Below are positions 2,710-64,000 of a stretch of DNA of 64,000 nt, piece after piece. The stretch lies in NCBI GenBank assembly GCA_003224755.1, contig QHZR01000017.1:1887-65886 (forward strand), given 5' to 3'. The DNA comes from Acidobacteriota bacterium (lineage in GTDB: Bacteria > Acidobacteriota > Terriglobia > Terriglobales > Acidobacteriaceae). Each line of letters starts with the position of its first letter. Position 1 is the first letter of the stretch. Below the pieces are notes generated by a model. The model saw only the letters and a list, made by a program, of their open reading frames with translations. It did not search any database and was not told the origin of the DNA. A program made the position numbers and the translations under genes.

Positions 2710-3909
2710 ATGCTCAAGCCAGGTGACATTGCGATCGTTAGCGGCGCACGCACGCCGTTCGGACGTTATTGCGGCAAGCTGAAAGACTTTACGGCGCAGG
2801 AACTCGGCGCGATTGCCGCCAAAGAGGCGATCCAGCGCGCGGGCGTCAAGGCGGAAGAATTCGATCACGCCGTTTTCGGCAATGCGCAACAGACTTCCGG
2901 CGACGCACTGTACGGTGCCCGTCATGTGGGACTGCGAGCGGGGTTGCCGATTGAAACGCCAGCGCTGACGGTCAATCGCCTGTGCGGTAGCGGCATGCAG
3001 GCAATCGTAAACGGCGCGCACATGATCATGACCGATGAAGGCAGCGTTGTCTTGGCGGGCGGCATGGAAGCCATGTCGCAAGCGCCGTTTGTGATTCGCG
3101 GGCGCGATGGATTCACGCTGGCTCCCGGCGGCAAGCTCGAAGATTCGCTGATGGTTGCGCTGCTCGACAGTTATTGCGGTTCGTACATGGCAAACACCGC
3201 AGAACTGTATGGCTCGCAACACGGAATCACGCGCGAGATGCAGGATGAATTTGCTCTGCGTTCACAAAAATGCACTGATGACGCTTACAAAGCCGGACGC
3301 ATTCAGGAAGAGCTGGTCCCGGTGCCGCTGAAGAGTTCCAAAGGCGAATCAACCGGAGAGTCGCTGACCGAGGACGATCATCGGCGTCCGCAGACCACGA
3401 TGGAAGGGCTGGCCAAGCTGCGTCCGGCGTTTGGAAAAAGCGGAACTGTTACCGCGGGGAACGCCAGCGGCATTGTGGACGGTGGCGCGGCTGTAGTCAT
3501 GATGTCCCTCGAAGATGCAGGCAAACGCGGAATCCAGCCGCTCGGCCGGATTGTGAGCTGGGGAGTTGCGGGAGTTGATCCAAAGATCATGGGCAGTGGG
3601 CCGGTTCCGGCGTCTAAGATCGCTCTGCAAAAGGCTGGCATGACGCTCGAGCACATTGACCTGATCGAGGTGAACGAAGCGTTTGCTGCGCAGTATCTTG
3701 CGGTCGAAAAAGAGTTGGGCCTGGATCGCGAGAAAGTGAACGTAAACGGTGGCGCGATTGCCTTGGGGCATCCGCTGGGCGCAACCGGTACTCGGCTGGT
3801 GATTACGTTGCTCTACGAGTTGCGTCGCCGCAAAAAGAAGTATGGTCTGGCAACGGCGTGCATTGGCGGCGGACAGGGGATTGCGATGGTGGTGGAGAGC
3901 TTGAATTAG
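2710..3909 (+). CDS. acetyl-CoA C-acetyltransferase (thiolase II)
   Basis: 399 aa with thiolase signatures: N-terminal IVSGARTPFG, active-site NRLCGSG, C-terminal GLATACIGGGQG. Confidence 0.9.
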   Translation: MLKPGDIAIVSGARTPFGRYCGKLKDFTAQELGAIAAKEAIQRAGVKAEEFDHAVFGNAQQTSGDALYGARHVGLRAGLPIETPALTVNRLCGSGMQAIVNGAHMIMTDEGSVVLAGGMEAMSQAPFVIRGRDGFTLAPGGKLEDSLMVALLDSYCGSYMANTAELYGSQHGITREMQDEFALRSQKCTDDAYKAGRIQEELVPVPLKSSKGESTGESLTEDDHRRPQTTMEGLAKLRPAFGKSGTVTAGNASGIVDGGAAVVMMSLEDAGKRGIQPLGRIVSWGVAGVDPKIMGSGPVPASKIALQKAGMTLEHIDLIEVNEAFAAQYLAVEKELGLDREKVNVNGGAIALGHPLGATGTRLVITLLYELRRRKKKYGLATACIGGGQGIAMVVESLN

Positions 3910-4844: not shown

Positions 4845-6581
4845 ATGCGCGTTAATCGCGATATTGGTGGACTGATTTTCTCAATCATGAACAGAGCCTT
4901 CTGCGTTTTGAAAATTCTTCTGTCAGCCGCATTCGTATTTTTTTCAGTCCATTCGTTTCTCCTAGGCCAGGAACCAGTAATCATTCAAGTTCATGCGGAC
5001 CACACTCTCGCCCCGCTCAAGCCGGTCTGGGCCTACTTTGGCTACGACGAGCCAAATTACACGTATGCGCCGCATGGTCGCGAGCTGATTGAGGAAATTG
5101 CCGCACTCAGCCCCGTGCCGGTGCAGATCCGGACGCACAATCTCCTGACTACGGGAGACGGAACTCCGGCGCTGAAGTGGGGATCCACCAACGCCTACAC
5201 CGAAGACGCTTCCGGTCATCCGGTGTATGACTGGAAAATCGTGGACCGCATACTCGACACTTATTTGCAGGCGGGTGCGAAGCCATTTGTTGAAATCGGA
5301 TTCATGCCCGAGGCGCTTTCCACGCATCCACTGCCCTATCAGCATCACTGGCCCAAAGACGAGCTGTATGTCGGCTGGACGTACCCGCCGCGTGATTACC
5401 AGAAGTGGTCGGAGTTGGTCTATCAGTTGGTGTCACACTGCATCGCTCGTTACGGCAAAACGGAAACTGAGTCATGGTCATGGGAGGTATGGAACGAGCC
5501 GAATATCGGATATTGGCATGGAACTCCTGAGGAGTATGACCAGCTCTATGACTATTCGGTTGACGCGGTGCGCCGAGCATTGCCGAACGCACGGGTCGGC
5601 GGACCTGCGACGACGGGCTCTGCTTCAACTACCGCCGCAGCCTTTCTGAGACAGTTTCTCGAGCACTGTGCGCGCGGCAAGAATTTCGCGACGGGAAAAA
5701 ACGGCGCCCCACTCGACTTCATCAGCTTTCATGCAAAGGGCTCGCCCCAGGTCGTGGATGGCAGGGTCCGCATGGGGCTGGCGAATAACCTGTGCGACGT
5801 GGACGAAGGACTTGCGATTGTAGCGTCGTTTCCGGAGTTCGCCCACTTGCCAGTGGTGCTCAGCGAGTCCGACCCGGAGGGTTGTGCCGCCTGTTCGGCC
5901 CGCGTCTATCCGCAGAACGCGTATCGCAACGGTCCCCTGTATCCTGCCTACACTGCCACGGCAATCCGCAACATGCTTGATCTGAATCAGCGCCACAGAA
6001 CCAACCTGGCCGGCATTCTAACCTGGGCCTTTGAATTCGAGGACCAGCCCTACTTCGACGGATTCAGAACGTTGGCAACAAATGGAGTTGATAAGCCGGT
6101 ACTCAATTTGTTTCGCATGCTCAGTTTGATGTCCGGCGACCGCGTTGAAGCGAGTAGCAATGGCAGAGTTGATTTGGATGAAATCCTCAAATCAGGCGTG
6201 CGAGCCGCAGCCGATGTAGATGCAATGGCAGCGCATTCCGAGCACGGCATGACCGTATTGCTATGGAATTACCATGACAATAATGATGAGGCCGCACCCG
6301 AGTCATCCGTTCAATTGAATATCGCCGGCTTGCCTGCCTCGTCAGAGAAGATTGTGGTGCACCATTATCGGATTGACCGCGACCACAGCAACGCATACAC
6401 GCTATGGAAAAAGCTGGGCTCGCCACAGGACCCTGATGCGGAACAGTACGCCGCTTTGAAAGCTGCCGGCCAACTACAATTGCTGGAGTCGCCTCGGTGG
6501 GTGCAGAGTAAAAACGGTGACTTAGTCTTGAGCTTCCCTTTGCCGCGGCAAGCGCTATCGCTGGTGAAGCTGGAATGGTGA
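4845..6581 (+). CDS. secreted glycoside hydrolase, GH39-like (clan GH-A)
   Basis: 578 aa with an N-terminal hydrophobic signal-like segment and a WSWEVWNEPN catalytic acid/base motif typical of GH39/GH5. Confidence 0.65.
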   Translation: MRVNRDIGGLIFSIMNRAFCVLKILLSAAFVFFSVHSFLLGQEPVIIQVHADHTLAPLKPVWAYFGYDEPNYTYAPHGRELIEEIAALSPVPVQIRTHNLLTTGDGTPALKWGSTNAYTEDASGHPVYDWKIVDRILDTYLQAGAKPFVEIGFMPEALSTHPLPYQHHWPKDELYVGWTYPPRDYQKWSELVYQLVSHCIARYGKTETESWSWEVWNEPNIGYWHGTPEEYDQLYDYSVDAVRRALPNARVGGPATTGSASTTAAAFLRQFLEHCARGKNFATGKNGAPLDFISFHAKGSPQVVDGRVRMGLANNLCDVDEGLAIVASFPEFAHLPVVLSESDPEGCAACSARVYPQNAYRNGPLYPAYTATAIRNMLDLNQRHRTNLAGILTWAFEFEDQPYFDGFRTLATNGVDKPVLNLFRMLSLMSGDRVEASSNGRVDLDEILKSGVRAAADVDAMAAHSEHGMTVLLWNYHDNNDEAAPESSVQLNIAGLPASSEKIVVHHYRIDRDHSNAYTLWKKLGSPQDPDAEQYAALKAAGQLQLLESPRWVQSKNGDLVLSFPLPRQALSLVKLEW

Positions 6582-8872: not shown

Positions 8873-8998
8873 CTTCATCTCCGCGGATGAACGCGGATTT
8901 CACGGATGAAAAACCTTTCACAAGAGAGACATCCTTCGACTTCGCTCAGGACAGGCTCCGACACGCAGAAATCCACCGACGAAAAGATTCGGCGGAAA

Positions 8999-9538
8999 AT
9001 GCGTGCCGGAAACCTTGACGCGTCGGGCATCCGCTTCGGAATCGTTGTTTCTCGGTTCAATGAGTTCATCACTGATCGTTTGCTTCGGAGTGCCTACGAT
9101 GCGCTTTTGCGTTCCGGTGCGAAGGAGAAAGACATCGAGATCGTCCGCGTCCCGGGCTCTTTTGAAATTCCATCCGCCGCTCGCACCCTCGCTGAGACCA
9201 AGAAATGCGATGTCATCATTTGTCTCGGGTGCTTGCTGCGCGGGGACACTGCGCATTACGACGTCATCGTCAACGAAGTCGCGCGCGGGATTGGGCAGTC
9301 GGCGCAGGAAACTGGAGTGCCGCATGCGTTCGGCGTCCTCACCTGTGACACGCTGAAACAGGCGATTGACCGCGCCGGGCTGAAAATGGGCAACAAGGGA
9401 TTCGAAGCGGCACTGGCGGCGGTAGAGATGGCGAATCTGAGAAGAGCCGTCGTTGGTCGTTCGTCGTTGGTCGTTCGCCAACCCAAGAAGCAAGGCGCGA
9501 AACGGGGCATGCGCAAAACTCGTCGCAAAGAGCGTTAG
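8999..9538 (+). CDS. ribH: 6,7-dimethyl-8-ribityllumazine synthase with repeat-derived C-terminal extension
   Basis: Internal ATG at 8999 gives IRFGIVVSRFNEFITD...GVLTCDTLKQAIDRAG, the canonical RibH core. The last ~25 codons overlap a tcgttggtcgttcg repeat. Confidence 0.8.
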   Translation: MRAGNLDASGIRFGIVVSRFNEFITDRLLRSAYDALLRSGAKEKDIEIVRVPGSFEIPSAARTLAETKKCDVIICLGCLLRGDTAHYDVIVNEVARGIGQSAQETGVPHAFGVLTCDTLKQAIDRAGLKMGNKGFEAALAAVEMANLRRAVVGRSSLVVRQPKKQGAKRGMRKTRRKER

Positions 9539-9676
9539 CCTCTGAATCTTGATTTTTTCTTCCTGTAAACTGAAGCTGTTCGTCAGCCAGTCGGGTCGAT
9601 GGCCAAGTGGCCTATGACCGGCGACGCGTTTGTTTTTGCCAACGACCAACGACGAATGACCAATGACGGTTTTCCC

Positions 9677-10108: not shown

Positions 10109-10317
10109 CTGTCGCGGGTGTTGCAATTCGGTCGTCCCTACGGGACTTGAATCATGTCTCGCTCCTTCCCAGCGCTGAAGCGCTGGTTGCTAAGATCGTT
10201 CGCCCCTATCGGGGCTGGCGAATTCCGACGTCCACGCGCCTTTCCTTGCGGCCAGAAGGCTATGGGTTGTGGACACGCGCCGAGCTTAGCTAGCTAAGCT
10301 AGGCGCGTGTCGTCGGA

Positions 10318-27043: not shown

Positions 27044-27149
27044 GATTTGGCAATTGGGTAATTTTGAAATTTGGTAATTTGAAAACGCTGGCGTCGAGCG
27101 CCTTCAATTACCAAATTACTCAATCACCAAATTACAAAATGAGTTCACC

Positions 27150-27515
27150 ATGCTGACACTGACATCGAAAAACGTAACGCGCCGACGGGTGCATGAGCGC
27201 ATTCGCAAGAAGGTCATGGGCACATCTGAGCGGCCTCGGCTGAACGTGTACCGATCGCTGAACCACATTTACGTTCAGGTGATTGATGACTTGAAGGGTG
27301 TAACGCTGGTTTCAGCCAACAGTGCGGAAGGCAACAAAGAAACGCGCAGGGTGGGCGGAAATCTGGCGGCGGCCAAAAACGTCGGAAAAGTAATTGCTGA
27401 GCGCGCCAAGGCCAAAGGGATAGAAAAAGTCGTGTTCGACCGCGGTGGATACATTTATCACGGGCGCGTGAAGGCGCTTGCGGATTCGGCGCGAGAAGCG
27501 GGATTGAAGTTCTAG
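27150..27515 (+). CDS. rplR: 50S ribosomal protein L18
   Basis: 121 aa L18 family protein. Confidence 0.9.
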
Positions 27516-27637
27516 AAGAATTGGGTAATTGGGTAATTGGGTAATTTTGTAATTTGAGAGTCAGACGTTGAGGTCGCGGCGATTTCAAATTTCACAATTA
27601 CCCAATTTCACAATTACTCAATGATTGTGAGCAAATA

Positions 27638-42180: not shown

Positions 42181-42246
42181 CAGCCGCGAAGCGGCGCAAG
42201 AATGCAGCCCGGGCGTCAGCCCTGGGCAAGAGCAAAATGAGCAAGC
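42181..42246 (+). repeat. two-hairpin intergenic element, copy A
   Basis: cagccgcgaagcggcgcaagaatgcagcccgggcgtcagccctgggcaagagcaaaatgagcaagc. Confidence 0.55.
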
Positions 42247-45393: not shown

Positions 45394-45460
45394 CAGCCGC
45401 GAAGCGGCGCAAGAATGCGGCCCAGGCCGCAAGGCCTGGGTTCAATGGCGATGAGCAAGC
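45394..45460 (+). repeat. two-hairpin intergenic element, copy B
   Basis: cagccgcgaagcggcgcaagaatgcggcccaggccgcaaggcctgggttcaatggcgatgagcaagc. Confidence 0.55.
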
Positions 45461-45627
45461 ACCGAAGGTGCGAAAGAAAATTCACCAGAGAGTACTGCGC
45501 GCGCATTTCAATGCCGGATTACCAGCGCGTTACCAAGGGTCGACCGCACTTTCCGTGAAGACAAACCCGAATCCCTGAAATCAACGGCACAAACCATCCA
45601 TCCTGTGTAAAATTCCGTTTCACCCCC

Positions 45628-46719
45628 ATGCCACTGAATATCAAACCCAAATCCCAATGTCGTTGGGACGAGCTCAGCCTCGGCGAGGTCATGCTGCGCT
45701 TCGATCCTGGCGATCACCGCATTGCAACGACGCGTAAGTTTGAGGTTTTCGAAGGCGGAGGCGAATATAACGTCGCGCGCGGGCTTAAGCGGTGCTTCGG
45801 TCTCGAGACTGCCCACGTCACCGCCCTCGCCGACAATCCCGCAGGCCGGCTGGTCGAGGACCTGATGTACCAGGGCAGCGTGCACCAGATCGTTCACTGG
45901 GTTCCCGATGACGGCGTCGGCCGCACCGTGCGCAACGGATTGAACTTCGTCGAACGCGGTTTTGGGGTGCGCGCCGCGCTCGGATGCTCCGATCGCGGCC
46001 ACACCGCCATCTCGCAGATGAAACCGGACGATGTGGACTGGGAGCAGATGTTCGGGAAATACGGAGTCCGCTGGTTTCATACTGGCGGCATCTTCTGCGC
46101 GCTCTCGGAAGGCACGCCCGAGGTCGCAATCGCGGCCATGAAAGCCGCCCGCAGGTACGGCACGATCGTTTCTTACGATCTGAACTACCGCGATTCTTTG
46201 TGGAAGTCCATCGGCGGAAAGAAGCGTGCGCAGGAAGTGAACCGTCGGCTGGCTCCGTTGGTGGATGTTATGCTCGGCAACGAAGAGGATTTTTCTGCGG
46301 CTCTTGGTTTCGAAGTTAGTGGGATGGACGAGCACATTTCGAAAATTGAAACCGAAGCCTTCAGGGAAATGATCAAGAACGTAGTCAAAGAGTTTCCGTT
46401 TAAAGTCGTCGCGACAACGCTGCGCAAGGCAAAGACCGCAACCGTGAATGATTGGGGCGCGATCTGCTATGCGGACGGAACGTTTCACGAAGCAAAGTAC
46501 CGCGAGAGCCTTGAGATTTACGACCGCGTGGGCGGCGGCGATTCGTTTGCCTCAGGCTTGATATATGGATTCCTCAGCGGGCAGGACCCGCAATGGGCGG
46601 TGGAATGTGGAGCGGCACATGGCGCGCTGGCAATGACCACGCCCGGCGATACGACCATGGCGACGCTGAAGGAAGTTCTGCAACTAATGAAAGGAGCCGG
46701 CGCCCGCATCGCGCGCTGA
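45628..46719 (+). CDS. kdgK: 2-dehydro-3-deoxygluconokinase (PfkB family)
   Basis: 363 aa with PfkB signatures including DRVGGGDSFASG. Confidence 0.8.
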   Translation: MPLNIKPKSQCRWDELSLGEVMLRFDPGDHRIATTRKFEVFEGGGEYNVARGLKRCFGLETAHVTALADNPAGRLVEDLMYQGSVHQIVHWVPDDGVGRTVRNGLNFVERGFGVRAALGCSDRGHTAISQMKPDDVDWEQMFGKYGVRWFHTGGIFCALSEGTPEVAIAAMKAARRYGTIVSYDLNYRDSLWKSIGGKKRAQEVNRRLAPLVDVMLGNEEDFSAALGFEVSGMDEHISKIETEAFREMIKNVVKEFPFKVVATTLRKAKTATVNDWGAICYADGTFHEAKYRESLEIYDRVGGGDSFASGLIYGFLSGQDPQWAVECGAAHGALAMTTPGDTTMATLKEVLQLMKGAGARIAR

Positions 46720-60586: not shown

Positions 60587-62701
60587 TTATGGTGCCGGGG
60601 CCGCCATCGGAGCGACGATCGCTGCGTTTATTGCGTCCTGAATTGCGATTCCATTATGTTCCAAAGTCGCGCCGGTCGCACGATCTACCTCGACCTTCGC
60701 TTTTTCGTAAACCGTCCTCGCGGTCACCAGGTCCAGTTCAGCGAGGGCGAGATCACGCTGCGCACTCATCGTCTGGTAAGTTGAACCTGCGCCGAGCGTC
60801 TGCTCTTTTTGGGTGATCTCAAAGGTACGCTGCGCCAGATCGCGGGCTTTACGAGCCGCCTCCACCCGCGCCGTGGTCTGTTCGAGTGCGTATTGCGCAT
60901 TACGGACCTCAATCCTGATTTGTTTTCGCAGCTCTTCGCGCCGCAGTTCAGCTTGCCTGTATTCGAGTTCGGACCGGTACTGATCAGCCTTAGCTACGCG
61001 GTTTCGGATGGGAATATTCAGGTTGAATCCGACGTAATAATCGGGCGCTGTGTTGTTGAACGCATTCCCCAGCGCCCCACTGAAATCAGTAGGGACGCTT
61101 GAGCTGTTGGGAACTCCGGGAATGTTGTAAACCGGATTTAGCGGGCCAGCCAATCCCGATCCTCCGTAAAACGCGACGAGCGAGAGCGAGGGCAGCAGCG
61201 CGTTCCTTGCAGCCTTGCGGCTGATTTGGCGATTGGCCAGGTCGACGTCAGACTCGAAAAGCTCTGGGCGATCGTGCAGGGCCTGCTGGATGAGATCCTG
61301 CACGTTCTCACCCGGAGGCGCAACTTGCGAGGACTGAAGCGTGTCCGTCGGTACGACGCTGACCGACTCAAGCACTGGATCATCCAGACTCTTCGTGAGC
61401 GCGTTCTTCATCAGTAGCTCTTGCAACTGCAGGCTTGTGCGCGCTACCGTCAAATCCTGATCGCGCTTTGAAACCTCGGCTTCGGCCCGCATGACATCCA
61501 TTGCCGGAATGCTCTGTAGCTGAAACTGCTTCTTGGCGTTATCGAGCGACTGCTGTGCGAACGCCAAGGACTGCTCGTTCACTTGCGACTGTTCGTAGGC
61601 ATTCACCAAATCCCAATAAATGTTCTCGATCTGAGTGACCGTCGCCATCACTTGATCTTTGAAGGCAATATCCGAAATGTGCTTGTTGTTCTTTGCTATC
61701 CGTAAATAACGAAGATTTGGACCAAAGCCGAATCCAGAGAGCAATTGCTGTTGGAATGAGAACCGGTACATCGATCCGAGGGCTGGAGAAAGATTGAAAT
61801 ACGGGCTGTTCGTGGTCTGGCGGTTGTTGTTGAACTCAAACGAAACGCTCGTGCCGGTCGCAAAAGCTTGGGCAAAGCCGAAATTAGCCTGGCCCGTGTT
61901 GAGTTGCAGCAATGGGACCCCGTAAATCCGCAGATTAGCGAGAGGTGTTGTTTGATGCTCCGCTCCCACCGAGGCAATGATGGCAGGGTCATACGAAGGC
62001 ACCGCCGTGCCGACGCCCAAGGTGGACTGCACCAGGCCCGAAGCGCCCGCCCCAGCGCCGCCCGCACCCGCAGTTGTACCCCCTGCGCCGGCACCGGGCG
62101 CGCCAGTCCCGAATCCACCGACGCCTCCGCCGGGAGTGCCTTGTACTACTCCCGCATTCACGCCTCGAAAAACTCCGCCAGCTTTCGTACGCAGAATGTC
62201 CATATCCGCGATCGGCAGATTGTAGCGTGCAATCGCGATGTCGAGATTATTTTCTAACGCGAGCTGAATCGCATCTTTAAGAGACAAATATAGCTTTCCA
62301 TCGCGAATGAGCTGATTCAGACGGGATGAGTTCGTGAGCTGAGGTTCGGGCGCCTGGCTCGGCGAATACGCACTGATTGGGTTGTGCGACTTCGGCATCT
62401 CGAAGGACACACCCGCGTTCGTCTGAGCTGCGGATGTTGCAGTGAGGACAATAAGGAAACAGAGCGCGAATATGTACCGAGACCAAGTGTCCCGGAGGGA
62501 CAGTCGCCAATAGCCCGGCGCTTCCAGCGCCGGGTTGGAAGCATGACGACGAAGTGCTGGAGGCACGGCTGACCCTTCAGCCGTCCCTAACGGGACTGGG
62601 CGCAGCACGTTTTTTCCCCGGCGTTGAAAACGCCGGGCTATTGGCGACTGTCCCTCCGGGACACGGTGCCCGACGAATTCGTTACCGCCGCGCTCCCTCA
62701 T
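60587..62701 (-). CDS. TolC-family outer membrane efflux protein with Gly-rich insertion. The N-terminal region carries a 56-codon in-frame repeat insertion before the signal peptide hydrophobic core
   Basis: 704-aa ORF whose ATG overlaps the stop of the upstream ABC ATPase (ATGA). OMF repeats with coiled-coil segments. Signal h-region YIFALCFLIVLTATSAAQ follows the inserted segment. Confidence 0.75.
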   Translation of the reverse strand: MRERGGNEFVGHRVPEGQSPIARRFQRRGKNVLRPVPLGTAEGSAVPPALRRHASNPALEAPGYWRLSLRDTWSRYIFALCFLIVLTATSAAQTNAGVSFEMPKSHNPISAYSPSQAPEPQLTNSSRLNQLIRDGKLYLSLKDAIQLALENNLDIAIARYNLPIADMDILRTKAGGVFRGVNAGVVQGTPGGGVGGFGTGAPGAGAGGTTAGAGGAGAGASGLVQSTLGVGTAVPSYDPAIIASVGAEHQTTPLANLRIYGVPLLQLNTGQANFGFAQAFATGTSVSFEFNNNRQTTNSPYFNLSPALGSMYRFSFQQQLLSGFGFGPNLRYLRIAKNNKHISDIAFKDQVMATVTQIENIYWDLVNAYEQSQVNEQSLAFAQQSLDNAKKQFQLQSIPAMDVMRAEAEVSKRDQDLTVARTSLQLQELLMKNALTKSLDDPVLESVSVVPTDTLQSSQVAPPGENVQDLIQQALHDRPELFESDVDLANRQISRKAARNALLPSLSLVAFYGGSGLAGPLNPVYNIPGVPNSSSVPTDFSGALGNAFNNTAPDYYVGFNLNIPIRNRVAKADQYRSELEYRQAELRREELRKQIRIEVRNAQYALEQTTARVEAARKARDLAQRTFEITQKEQTLGAGSTYQTMSAQRDLALAELDLVTARTVYEKAKVEVDRATGATLEHNGIAIQDAINAAIVAPMAAPAP
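62487..62664. mobile_element. MITE-like 168-nt element with perfect ~34-bp terminal inverted repeats and three internal hairpins, inserted in frame in the TolC-like gene
   Basis: Left arm gtgtcccggagggacagtcgccaatagcccggcg at 62487..62520. Exact reverse complement at 62631..62664. Internal hairpins at 62515..62533, 62565..62584 and 62618..62636. Confidence 0.55.
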
Positions 62702-63405
62702 TGCTTCACCGCCTCATACGGCTGAAGGTCAGGATTCGCTGTATCGCTCACCACCCAACCGTCACGTAACTGAATCGTGCGCGAGCCGTACTCGGCATTG
62801 ACTTCCGAGTGAGTCACCTGGACGATCGTTGTCCCCTGCTGATTCAGTTCGCGAAAGAGCTCCATGATCTCCTTCGCCTGAGAGGAATGCAGGTTCCCGG
62901 TAGGTTCGTCCGCCAGCAGGAGTGCGGGTCTATGGATGACCGCGCGCGCAACTCCCACGAGTTGCTGCTGTCCGCCGGAGAGCTGGCTGGGAAATAGGTC
63001 TTTCTTGGCGACAATCTGAAAACGGTCAAGCGTGTCGGCCACCATGCCCTGCCGTTGTTGGTGGGGAATGTCTGTATATGAGAGTGGCAGATCAATGTTT
63101 TCGCGGACCGTGAGATCGTCGAGCAAGTGATAGCTCTGAAACACCATGCCGATATTGCGCTTGGCGAGTTCCGCCCGCTGCTTGCGCTTCATCTCATGCA
63201 CGGCCTGATCGCGAAACCAGTATTCACCCTGCCAAGCGTCATCGAGAAGCGCGAGCACATTTAATAAGGAGGACTTGCCAGCGCCGGACGGCCCCATAAT
63301 GGTGATGAACTCGCCTTCGCGAATCTCGAGGTTGACTCGCCGGAGCACAAAAAATTGCCCCGCGGGCGTTTTGTAACTGCGTTCAAGATTCTTGAGTTGA
63401 ATCAT
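62698..63405 (-). CDS. ABC transporter ATP-binding protein (MacB/LolD-like)
   Basis: ATG at 63405 after GGAGG; Walker A GPSGAGKSS, signature LSGGQQQ, Walker B LLLADEPT. Confidence 0.88.
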   Translation of the reverse strand: MIQLKNLERSYKTPAGQFFVLRRVNLEIREGEFITIMGPSGAGKSSLLNVLALLDDAWQGEYWFRDQAVHEMKRKQRAELAKRNIGMVFQSYHLLDDLTVRENIDLPLSYTDIPHQQRQGMVADTLDRFQIVAKKDLFPSQLSGGQQQLVGVARAVIHRPALLLADEPTGNLHSSQAKEIMELFRELNQQGTTIVQVTHSEVNAEYGSRTIQLRDGWVVSDTANPDLQPYEAVKQ

Positions 63406-63437
63406 GTTCCTCCAAAAGGATCTTTCCGTCGCGTACC

Positions 63438-64000
63438 TCACTCGTCCCGCAGCGCCACCATGGGATCAACCTTGGCGGCACGGCGGGCTGGGATGTAGCA
63501 CGCCAACAACGCGATCACTCCGAAAACAATGACAACTGATGCATAGGAGACGATATCTCCCGGACTAACCTCGAACAGCAGATGCGACATCAAGCGAGAC
63601 AAAAAAACTGCTGCCAGCAGTCCAATCGCCGCTCCTGCTGCGAACAGTCGCGAGCCGCTCGCCAGCACCATGCTGAGCACATCGCCGAATCGCGCACCGA
63701 GCGCGATACGGACGCCGATTTCCCGTGTCCTCTGTGTTACCGCAAACGAGAGCACCGCATAAATTCCGAGCGCCGCCAGCAGCAGCGCGATGCCGGCAAA
63801 TCCGCCCAACAACAAGGTGTTCATTCGCGGTTGCGCGATGCTCGAATCAACTAGATCGCTCATGGTTTGGACGTTTGCGACTGGCTGGTCTTTATCTACC
63901 TGCGACACTTGCCGGCGCACTTCGTTCACAATACTGAGGGGGTCGCTTGCGGTGCGCACGGCTAGAGAATCCGGCCAGAAGAAATCGGCCTGCTCAAACG
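63438..64000 (-). CDS. ABC transporter permease, FtsX-like C-terminal domain (MacB-type), 5' end beyond the window
   Basis: The frame stays open to the window edge. TM-rich C-terminus ...LGARFGDVLSMVLASG...; ends ALRDE. Confidence 0.7.
   Translation of the reverse strand, partial: FEQADFFWPDSLAVRTASDPLSIVNEVRRQVSQVDKDQPVANVQTMSDLVDSSIAQPRMNTLLLGGFAGIALLLAALGIYAVLSFAVTQRTREIGVRIALGARFGDVLSMVLASGSRLFAAGAAIGLLAAVFLSRLMSHLLFEVSPGDIVSYASVVIVFGVIALLACYIPARRAAKVDPMVALRDE

Follow-up and report, generated by a model that had tools for sequence, protein, structure and literature searches.

Acido-Lenti-1 (Rfam RF01687) has been reported from Acidobacteria and Lentisphaerae, at times near group II introns, as a probable trans-acting RNA whose function was left unassigned (Weinberg et al. 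2010, PMC2864571). Among repetitive extragenic palindromes (REPs), copies lying inside open reading frames (ORFs), including copies at N-termini and dimers, have already been catalogued (Di Nocera et al. 2013, PMC3733652). Subclass 1.2 of the Y1 transposases has been characterized by low copy number, by the lack of end structures of the IS200 type and by the entry ‘no’ for REPs (Quentin et al. 2018, PMC6006769). Our analysis concerns a 64,000-nucleotide (nt) stretch of contig QHZR01000017.1 from an Acidobacteriota bacterium (hereafter, the window). A near-perfect palindrome at window positions 62487–62664 lies in frame within the signal-peptide-coding part of a TolC-like outer-membrane channel gene. 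We conclude that this segment is probably a non-autonomous, REPIN-like repeat of a Y1-linked family, tolerated in the TolC signal region.

An inverted doublet of three-hairpin units

The core element (62487–62664, 178 nt) is classified here as a REPIN-like inverted doublet of two three-hairpin units on the basis of its arms, its fold and a plan common to 42 other doublets. A repeat search delimits inverted arms of 48 nt each at 62487–62534 and 62617–62664, which are 94% complementary and 82 nt apart. Terminal pairing is uninterrupted for 34 nt, from GTGTC through GACAC, and extends 5 bases further out on each side than the 29-mer CCGGAGGGACAGTCGCCAATAGCCCGGCG, of which the window has exactly two copies, one on each strand (0 matches in 100 shuffles). 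An earlier note on this DNA, made from its letters alone, had described a 168-nt inverted-repeat segment; the repeat is real, but its boundaries were probably drawn too narrowly, as the palindrome measures 178 nt and the inserted DNA perhaps ~207 nt. The folding proposed there as a check gives approximately −138 kcal/mol for each strand, with z-scores of −12.5 and −14.2 relative to dinucleotide shuffles.

Each part of the palindrome forms local hairpins. The left arm (62488–62534, minus strand) comprises an outer hairpin, GTCCC-GGA-GGGAC (62489–62501), a 12-nt linker ending in an ATAG tag (62510–62513), and the hairpin P1 (62514–62534). The right arm (62617–62663, plus strand) comprises P1 (62617–62637), the linker CTATTGGCGACT (62638–62649) and an outer hairpin, GTCCC-TCC-GGGAC (62650–62662). 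The centre (62554–62596), delimited from the sequence and the family architecture, holds an inner-left hairpin, GTGC-TGGAG-GCAC (62554–62566), the pairing GGCTGA-ccc-TTCAGCC (62567–62582) and an inner-right hairpin, GTCCC-TAAC-GGGAC (62583–62596). The internal stem-loops that had been noticed from the sequence are present: two P1 hairpins, GTGC..GCAC, GGCTGA..TCAGCC and GTCCC..GGGAC. Translation of the window plus strand also yields VPEGQSPIARRFQRR, and the claim that both strands encode a similar peptide therefore holds, the same type of peptide arising from either.

Both arms match Acido-Lenti-1

Both arms align end to end with positions 1–46 of the RF01687 model, with all stem pairs standard, and reproduce its structural plan of an 8-bp hairpin, a 12-nt linker led by GGCUA and a 5-bp hairpin. 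The left arm scores 33.4 bits and the right arm 31.8 bits, just under the gathering score of 37, with E-values of 4.6e-6 and 1.3e-5 in a 351-nt search and of 8e-4 and 2e-3 across the whole window. A hidden Markov model (HMM) of the family, built from the instances described below, gives 32 and 33 bits for the two arms, respectively. Window positions 62570–62663 are 80% identical over 95 nt to positions 5764–5856 of locus L030, from a Verrucomicrobiota metagenome-assembled genome (MAG), and the L030 arm scores 45.1 bits, above the RF01687 gathering score. The RF01687 seed alignment itself contains tandem arrays with periods of 69–200 nt and one inverted pair (wf3_AHAI13594_y1, 530–575 on the minus strand and 682–727 on the plus strand), and the members of this pair are the seed sequences most like the window arms. 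The first reading of the element, that it matched no recognized family, was thus mistaken: both arms match RF01687, and the whole element is a widespread inverted doublet. Matches to the Rfam families mir-B6, VA RNA and frameshift elements were dismissed as generic long-hairpin matches far below their gathering scores.

The window holds five instances of the motif, and several loci per MAG occur elsewhere. Beyond the two arms, three solo copies are present. A half-unit at 10134–10216 (plus strand), consisting of the inner hairpin, P1, the linker and P2, lies directly 3′ of a nusB-like ORF and scores 33.1 bits over 10168–10216, below the threshold. A copy between two minus-strand ORFs (42182–42226, minus strand) passes the gathering score with 44.1 bits. 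The third, at 45395–45471 (minus strand), has an inner hairpin, GCACC-TTC-GGTGC, together with P1 and P2, lies 3′ of the minus-strand ORF 45508–46488 and scores 44.5 bits over 45395–45440. All three are half-elements (inner hairpin, P1, outer hairpin) and follow an ORF immediately on its 3′ side, sharing its strand, a placement resembling that of REPs.

A widespread family with one shared plan

A scan of one genome per species (185,579 genomes) with the pattern GGGCTAYTNNNNNNNGTCCCNNCGGGAC, which specifies the linker and outer hairpin only, gave at least 120 loci in Acidobacteriaceae/Terriglobia, Planctomycetota, Verrucomicrobiota, Desulfobacterota, Hydrogenedentota and others; the counts of doublets, pairs and stems below rest on at least 120 loci among the matches listed. 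The P1 hairpin, which the pattern leaves unspecified, stands directly upstream in almost all of these. Its 7-bp stem is perfect in 105 of 133 instances and occurs in 25 sequence versions, with Watson–Crick covariation at four positions. The HMM built from these instances finds 218 copies in 1.07 Mb, and a sample of 18 loci contains 28 matches above the RF01687 gathering score, including both arms of several doublets.

Adjacent motifs are frequently arranged as mirror images: 47 of 81 adjacent pairs are in the (−)(+) orientation, with a spacer tightly centred at 100 nt. The 43 doublets, the window copy included, share one plan. In the left half, the outer hairpin, linker and P1 are followed, after ~20 nt, by an inner hairpin (GTCCCGNAGGGAC or GTGCCNNAGGCAC) and GAYTGAA; a variable spacer of 3–40 nt then leads into TTCAGYC, an inner hairpin (GTCCCTNCGGGAC), ~20 nt, P1, the linker and the outer hairpin of the right half. 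The window element follows this plan exactly, its spacer being minimal (GGCTGA-ccc-TTCAGCC). On the opposite strand, the conserved GGGCTAYT becomes ARTAGCCC, so that an [A/G]TAG foot adjoins P1 on its 5′ side; the window arms have ATAG. The element thereby shows two features of REPs and REPINs, namely a GC-rich palindrome with a 5′ tag of the GTAG type and two inverted units that fold as one hairpin. About 4 of the 43 doublets lie within open spans longer than 250 amino acids (aa), and ~17% of the frames through family doublets are open by chance.

A 22-mer scan for the exact arm gave no match in the 185,579 species genomes; JGI metagenomes, scanned with a degenerate 20-mer, contained 8 matching loci, 7 of them by chance and 1 an orthologous copy; and BLASTN and nhmmer searches with the element found no additional copy, either in the window itself or among ~150 kb of related loci. 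Because scans for the exact arm are nearly empty, this variant is not a MITE (miniature inverted-repeat transposable element) of the high-copy, identical-sequence kind. The search for further arm copies that had been suggested for this element therefore has two answers, with only an orthologous copy of the exact sequence and at least 120 loci at the level of the family.

A Y1 transposase within the architecture

In more widely spaced doublets, the centre is occupied by a Y1_Tnp gene encoding 143–148 aa. Such genes lie at the centre of the architecture or adjoin it at L045 (4004–4435, PF01797 at 1.4e-27), L085 (a frameshifted copy), L054 and L137, and tblastn shows that these four Y1 genes in motif-selected loci are all within ~100 nt of motifs. 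The L045 protein has 4,793 homologues at E ≤1e-10, some named RayT by JGI. Three further Y1 loci picked by protein similarity alone (L139, L140 and L141–144) are all flanked by inverted motifs above the gathering score (3 of 3), which brings to seven the loci with a Y1 (HUH) gene within the inverted-unit architecture or immediately next to it. The L140 gene is bounded exactly by GGCTGAAATTT and CCTTCAGCC, and in L141 its stop codon forms the loop of the inner hairpin; in both, it is placed between GGCTGAA and TTCAGCC. No DDE transposase gene recurs inside the architecture among the listed loci, Y1 being the sole recurrent gene. The protein P0185 (L141–L144) occurs in one conserved context, LptF/G–Y1–response regulator, on five metagenome contigs, which indicates behaviour more like that of RAYTs (REP-associated tyrosine transposases) than of insertion sequences (ISs).

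The Y1 proteins pass the NCBIfam model NF033573 (IS200/IS605) with 75–79 bits against a cutoff of 55, and the nearest solved structures are the TnpA proteins of IS200, ISDra2 and IS608. Their invariant motifs DHVH, WQ and YIxxQxxHH identify them, by signature, with subclass 1.2. Two alternatives reported for Acidobacteria, the class 3 Y1 proteins and the TIRYTs, were considered and neither fits, as the Y and W motifs differ. We infer that the doublets are the transposase-less form of a system resembling REP/REPIN–RAYT, in which, by analogy, cleavage and mobilization would be performed by Y1. Two side observations concern these genes. Many Y1 homologues are found on contigs of 0.5–2 kb, as expected if flanking repeats break assemblies, and in L140 a tandem array of ~20-nt ACACACGC(A/T)TTCGA-like repeats (3540–3800) directly follows the Y1 cassette.

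The host gene and its signal peptide

The element occupies codons 13–72 of a minus-strand ORF (60587–62701) that encodes a 704-aa outer-membrane channel of the TolC/OEP family, as indicated by the ORF list, PF02321 and thousands of OEP homologues; PF02321 is on record for the window gene and all its homologues. The ORF remains open through the segment without a stop codon, as the earlier note had stated, and its start overlaps the stop of the upstream ABC transporter ATPase gene (62698–63405, minus strand, from called genes and alignment) as ATGA at 62698–62701, again as first described. This ATGA junction is kept in all orthologues compared, with or without the element. The locus has the same order in filled and empty sites for which DNA is available: MacB-type permeases, ATPase, OEP, sigma-54 response regulator and kinase.

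The gene is predicted to encode OEP domains and an N-terminal Sec signal peptide. Directly 3′ of the element in the mRNA sense lie the h- and c-regions, WSRYIFALCFLIVLTATSAAQ (62426–62485, minus strand), assigned from hydropathy and orthologue alignment. The hydropathy maximum of 3.07 falls at residues 77–87, IFALCFLIVLT, which is the sole strong hydrophobic stretch of the N-terminal region, and the following TATSAAQ aligns with the cleavage region of orthologues (...LTATASAQ). Residues 1–75 include 14 Lys/Arg and 6 Asp/Glu, giving a basic extension. In-silico removal of 62492–62659 yields MRERGGNEFVGHRVDTWSRYIFALCFLIVLTATSAAQ, reproducing the earlier result. These findings support the core of that note, an extra, non-autonomous repeat within the part of a TolC-like gene that codes for the signal peptide.

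The gene is functional by this measure, its mature protein being under strong purifying selection: over 612 mature codons compared between the window and L002/L003, the proportions of synonymous (pS) and non-synonymous (pN) differences are 0.41 and 0.039, a pN/pS of 0.09. The inserted peptide is not under such constraint, having a pN/pS of 0.6–0.9 on 8–11 changes, with a pS of 0.05–0.09; a reading of this low synonymous divergence as a signal of constraint was rejected, as it is common to the whole conserved block 62660–62120. In all six carrier variants, which range down to 82% peptide identity and show no indel, the frame stays open from a start that lies upstream of the element. As the mature part is strongly constrained in insertion-bearing lineages, tolerance in the n-region is the best reading. 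The element is likeliest to be a tolerated passenger in a cleaved signal-peptide n-region, with translation running from the coupled ATG through the element, followed by Sec export and removal of the whole extension. Of the two outcomes put forward in the earlier note, tolerance or inactivated export, the second is accordingly not favoured. Given that ~17% of frames are open by chance, chance together with selection against disruptive insertions suffices to explain an in-frame copy.

A second case is found in a Planctomycetota MAG (L021, JAIOPX010000321.1, 1561–1771), where an ATGA-coupled start is followed by ten codons (MKKLEFNSPI), an open 70-aa doublet and then TRILPPVFLVTMVLSLFSASYA. This layout is an independent counterpart of that in the window, an in-frame doublet ahead of a signal-peptide h-region. 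Two to three such cases among 43 doublets establish no preference and fit n-regions as permissive sites. As a separate observation, in L111 a doublet (2000–2184) stops 12 nt short of the ATG that starts an ApbE-like lipoprotein (MPSGRKLGWFFALFTLALLTGC); the frame upstream of it is open by chance and would mislead a gene caller.

Filled and empty sites

A search with the 704-aa protein returned thousands of close OEP homologues, and the segment is present at one and the same site in at least six TolC variants: the window protein, P0001–P0004 and P0121. P0001–P0004 are 93–95% identical, 700–704 aa long and have the same extra segment in the same place. P0121 is a sixth and more diverged carrier, 82% identical over the insert, known as a fragment with another start (MKTTVLSRV...); a search with the 62-aa insert peptide as query added only this one orthologous TolC fragment. 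Carrier DNA, compared from three assemblies, differs in sequence among them (ENA ERZ28573530, NCBI GCA_009772735.1 and ENA ERZ27253167), whereas P0001, P0004 and P0121 were compared as proteins. By contrast, P0005–P0010, P0055 and many others are 630–659 aa long and have ordinary signal peptides of 23–28 aa, such as MRERSKTLLAWLLVALAATASAQ. The orthologue alignment that had been suggested thus bears out an insertion, with equally close orthologues lacking the segment.

The carriers do not form a clade. We considered and rejected this grouping, as the mature-protein tree scatters the carriers, and the nearest relative of the window protein in that tree is the element-free P0005 (97%). DNA identity across the locus is a mosaic, ranging from 78 to 100% in 60-nt windows (60587–63441 compared with L002, L003, L004 and L005), which indicates frequent homologous recombination in the population. 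With a mosaic gene and carriers that are not a clade, the allele has been shuffled by recombination, and the timing of its gain is not readable from the tree. Outside the element, the signal-peptide region is too diverged to align between filled and empty alleles. Separately, the 599-aa protein P0011, with MPKSH as its start, is a close neighbour of P0003, which carries the insertion; its element-bearing 5′ end was probably skipped by the gene caller, start annotation at this locus being inconsistent.

Boundaries and flanking repeats

Neither the window palindrome nor those of its nearest relatives are directly flanked by a duplication, and inverted symmetry beyond 62487–62664 is not significant (P = 0.17). 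Further out, a possible pair of flanking direct repeats, CGAATATGTACCG (62467–62479) and CGAATTCGTTACCG (62674–62687), matches at 11 of 14 positions (P ~0.05 against shuffles); this imperfect and uncertain pair (13/14 nt) lies 7–9 nt outside the palindrome. Removal of 62467–62673 (207 nt) leaves MRERGGNEFALCFLIVLTATSAAQ, a 24-aa signal region in frame and in the length class of the empty orthologues. Across the family, flanking direct repeats are weakly enriched (score ≥8 in 6 of 41 loci compared with 4.9% of controls, P = 0.049). They are found at L020 (GTTTATTTC, 9/9), L078 (13/14) and L110 (25/30), with GGAA or TTCA in others, and are absent from most doublets, including the window’s nearest relatives L098, L097, L063 and L057. 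In some members, inverted symmetry runs 15–45 nt past the outer hairpin (L020 and L037, on different contigs of the same MAG, and L078, L110, L066 and L052).

Proposed origin and competing explanations

We propose that the element consists of two inverted copies of a ~90-nt three-hairpin unit, the outer two hairpins of which would correspond to Rfam Acido-Lenti-1, and that it is the gene-less version of full-length relatives with a central IS200-like Y1 gene of 143–148 aa. By analogy with IS200/IS605 and REP–RAYT systems, the hairpins would be recognized as folded single-stranded DNA, cut beside the [A/G]TAG foot and moved in trans by Y1. A copy would have inserted, in the ancestry of one Acidobacteriota population from soil, a few codons past the coupled start of the TolC-like gene of an ABC efflux operon, and the gene would have survived through the frame-preserving length and stop-free sense frame of the insert. 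The element would most likely be translated as a basic n-region extension of 56–69 aa that signal peptidase removes, leaving the mature channel unchanged. The allele may then have spread and persisted through vertical descent and homologous recombination while the element slowly decayed.

Several observations weigh against this account. Both window arms score below the RF01687 gathering score of 37. No Y1 gene is present within the 64-kb window, and Y1 genes flanked by the motif are found in related genomes only; the Y1 proteins themselves are IS200-class and reach just 21–26 bits with the canonical RAYT model NF047646, whose cutoff is 80. No second copy of the exact variant was found in the window, the related loci or the two sequence collections, so recent mobility in this lineage is unsupported. 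Translation from the upstream ATG would have to pass a 48-bp stem, and the low pS of the element, being shared with a block of ~550 nt, is not informative about the element in particular. Direct repeats of variable length, 4–30 nt, border some family members, and the window has its imperfect 13/14-nt pair. To our knowledge, transposition by a Y1 enzyme of the HUH type is not expected to give such flanking repeats or the extended symmetry.

Two alternatives accept the repeat but not its translation as a passenger. The element could be kept as an operon RNA structure, similar to REPs or bacterial interspersed mosaic elements (BIMEs), between the ABC transporter and channel genes, where it might stabilize the upstream mRNA, attract RNase III or throttle the coupled synthesis of the channel, the open frame being a mere precondition. 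The covariation from which the Rfam curators and Weinberg et al. judged the motif to be a likely RNA would agree with this, but it is equally expected of local hairpins that Y1 recognizes as single-stranded DNA. The fold is extremely stable, and the three solo copies of the window lie just 3′ of genes on the same strand; against this, a scan of 62300–62850 found no promoter or terminator, and equally close relatives manage without the element. Substitutions give a divided picture. Among the orthologous copies, 3 of ~14 fall in local stems, 2 of these 3 being G–U-compatible on the sense strand (hand-read alignment), and a compensatory pair can be deduced from the P0121 peptide, with TCG changed to TTG in the left arm and CGA to CAA in the right. 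However, L002/L003 show decay of the ATAG tag and of several pairs, and the arms of many doublets differ in P1, so that local hairpins are conserved family-wide and the long-range pairing is not. We consider an RNA role unlikely, although it is the alternative to which we give most weight. It is also unlikely that the element is untranslated, with the true start inside or after it, so that the element would be an intercistronic leader and would owe its in-frame position to chance in ORF calling. For many REPs found at the N-termini of ORFs, translation probably starts downstream and the repeat is extragenic (Di Nocera et al. 2013, PMC3733652); the L111 doublet, 12 nt ahead of a clear lipoprotein start and with an open frame, is arranged in this way; and family frames are open by chance often enough. 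At this locus, P0011 is called from MPKSH by one gene caller and an in-frame GTG at window 62565–62563 is preceded by GAAGGG. Yet the stretch from the element to the hydrophobic core lacks any ATG, GTG or TTG, and a protein started downstream would have no n-region; of the two in-frame GTGs that the element contains, neither is conserved (ATC replaces one in L002/L003, and the other is Ala in P0121). The frame kept open without indels in all six variants and the ATGA coupling kept in every orthologue compared speak for the upstream start.

The remaining explanations concern the origin of the segment. The segment might be a classical MITE, a deletion derivative of a DDE-type IS with terminal inverted repeats, cut-and-paste movement and a target-site duplication; the earlier note had called it MITE-like, and the perfect inverted-repeat termini, the weak family enrichment of flanking repeats (L020, L078 and L110 as above) and the imperfect window pair are compatible with it. 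This origin is nevertheless very improbable: repeat lengths of 4–30 nt fit no single DDE enzyme and most doublets have no such repeats, the arms are conserved as covarying hairpins and not as sequence, and the gene recurring inside the architecture of the listed loci is Y1/HUH, not DDE. An assembly artefact, by a chimeric or fold-back join, or a dead pseudogene has nothing in its favour apart from the trouble that palindromes can generally cause when short reads are assembled and can be set aside with near certainty. The same insertion is present, with sequence differences, in three independent assemblies, which excludes such an artefact, and in three further protein clusters, while the gene is intact and under purifying selection; the suspicion of an artefact, raised beforehand as a way in which the element might fail, was not borne out. 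More speculatively, and in our judgement improbably, doublets could be targeted to, or selected at, coupled gene starts, with the variable flanking repeats reflecting an undescribed route of HUH-Y1 mobilization. This idea rests on the layout shared by the acidobacterial TolC gene and the planctomycete secreted-protein gene, in which an ATGA start is followed by 10–14 codons, the doublet and the signal core. Targeting may act on single-stranded or structured DNA at translationally coupled junctions; alternatively, selection may favour a signal region extended by arginine-rich sequence, or an RNA gate by which the exported partner's stoichiometry is set.

Other repeats in the window

The window contains further palindromic repeats. 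An unrelated AT-rich palindromic repeat, with ATTGGGTAATT... arms and a GC-rich centre, occurs at 27045–27140 and 27519–27622 and fills two successive spacers of a ribosomal-protein operon, on either side of the L18-like ORF 27150–27515. Between ORF 8906–9538 and the nusB-like ORF, 40-nt inverted arms composed of CGTCGTTGGT-like short repeats (9447–9486 and 9630–9669) enclose 143 nt. A near-perfect 40-nt palindrome (GACACGCGCCGAGCTTAGCTAGC / GCTAGCTAAGCTAGGCGCGTGTC) lies at 10272–10311, ~55 nt past the solo half-unit at 10134–10216.

Implications

The window copy illustrates well how a cleaved signal peptide can serve as a permissive landing site. If confirmed, the family picture would give a function to a motif listed by Rfam since 2010 as an orphan small RNA (sRNA) and would extend REP/RAYT-like systems to Acidobacteriota, the phyla of the PVC group and Desulfobacterota, with a partner from Y1 subclass 1.2, which had been reported without associated repeats. 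It also carries a warning for annotation, as the motif can sit in coding sequence and shift predicted gene starts.

Comparison with known systems

With Acido-Lenti-1, the window arms share the full 46-nt model, the 8-bp P1, the GGCUA-led 12-nt linker and the 5-bp P2. RF01687 is annotated as a trans-acting sRNA, whereas here its hairpins are the outer two of a three-hairpin unit, arranged in inverted doublets that flank Y1 genes. We found no mention of this doublet architecture or of a Y1 link of Acido-Lenti-1 in the literature searched.

The family resembles REP, BIME and REPIN repeats and their RAYTs (Nunvar 2010; Bertels & Rainey 2011; Ton-Hoang 2012; Di Nocera 2013) in its GC-rich hairpins, in a 5′ tetranucleotide foot ([A/G]TAG compared with GTAG), in inverted doublets that fold into a long hairpin and, probably, in a high copy number with most copies intergenic and 3′ of ORFs. 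As in a REPtron, a small HUH-Y1 gene lies between inverted repeats, at one conserved locus where tested. The unit is different, comprising three hairpins over ~90 nt instead of the single hairpin of a REP, and the transposase is of class 1, subclass 1.2 (DHVH, WQ, Y---Q--HH), whereas RAYTs are of class 2 (Y---NP). Unlike classical REPs, which are lineage-specific, the repeat is recognizable across phyla, as in the 80% identity over 95 nt between the window and L030.

With IS200/IS605 elements and their transposase-less derivatives, palindrome-associated transposable elements (PATEs) and MITEs, the family shares a Y1 protein that passes the IS200/IS605 model, subterminal hairpin ends and short forms without a gene. 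The end hairpins of IS200/IS605 lie on the same strand, without inverted termini; this arrangement is found neither in the doublets nor around the Y1 genes, both of which have mirror-image sides, (−) to the left and (+) to the right. The family picture, in which Acido-Lenti-1 is a REPtron-like repeat organized in three-hairpin doublets with a subclass 1.2 partner, appears to be new relative to the literature searched.

Rickettsia palindromic elements (RPEs), reportedly described by Ogata et al. in 2000, are inserted in frame in protein-coding genes. RPEs are also discussed in PMC3733652. The window element is like them in being an in-frame palindrome that is tolerated at a permissive site and whose peptide can be encoded by both strands. 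It belongs to an unrelated sequence family in unrelated hosts; RPEs lie in mature surface loops and are not known to have an associated transposase, whereas this copy lies in a cleaved signal peptide and its family is linked to Y1. The local event is a further member of a documented phenomenon, alongside intragenic REPs and the in-frame palindromes of Rickettsia.

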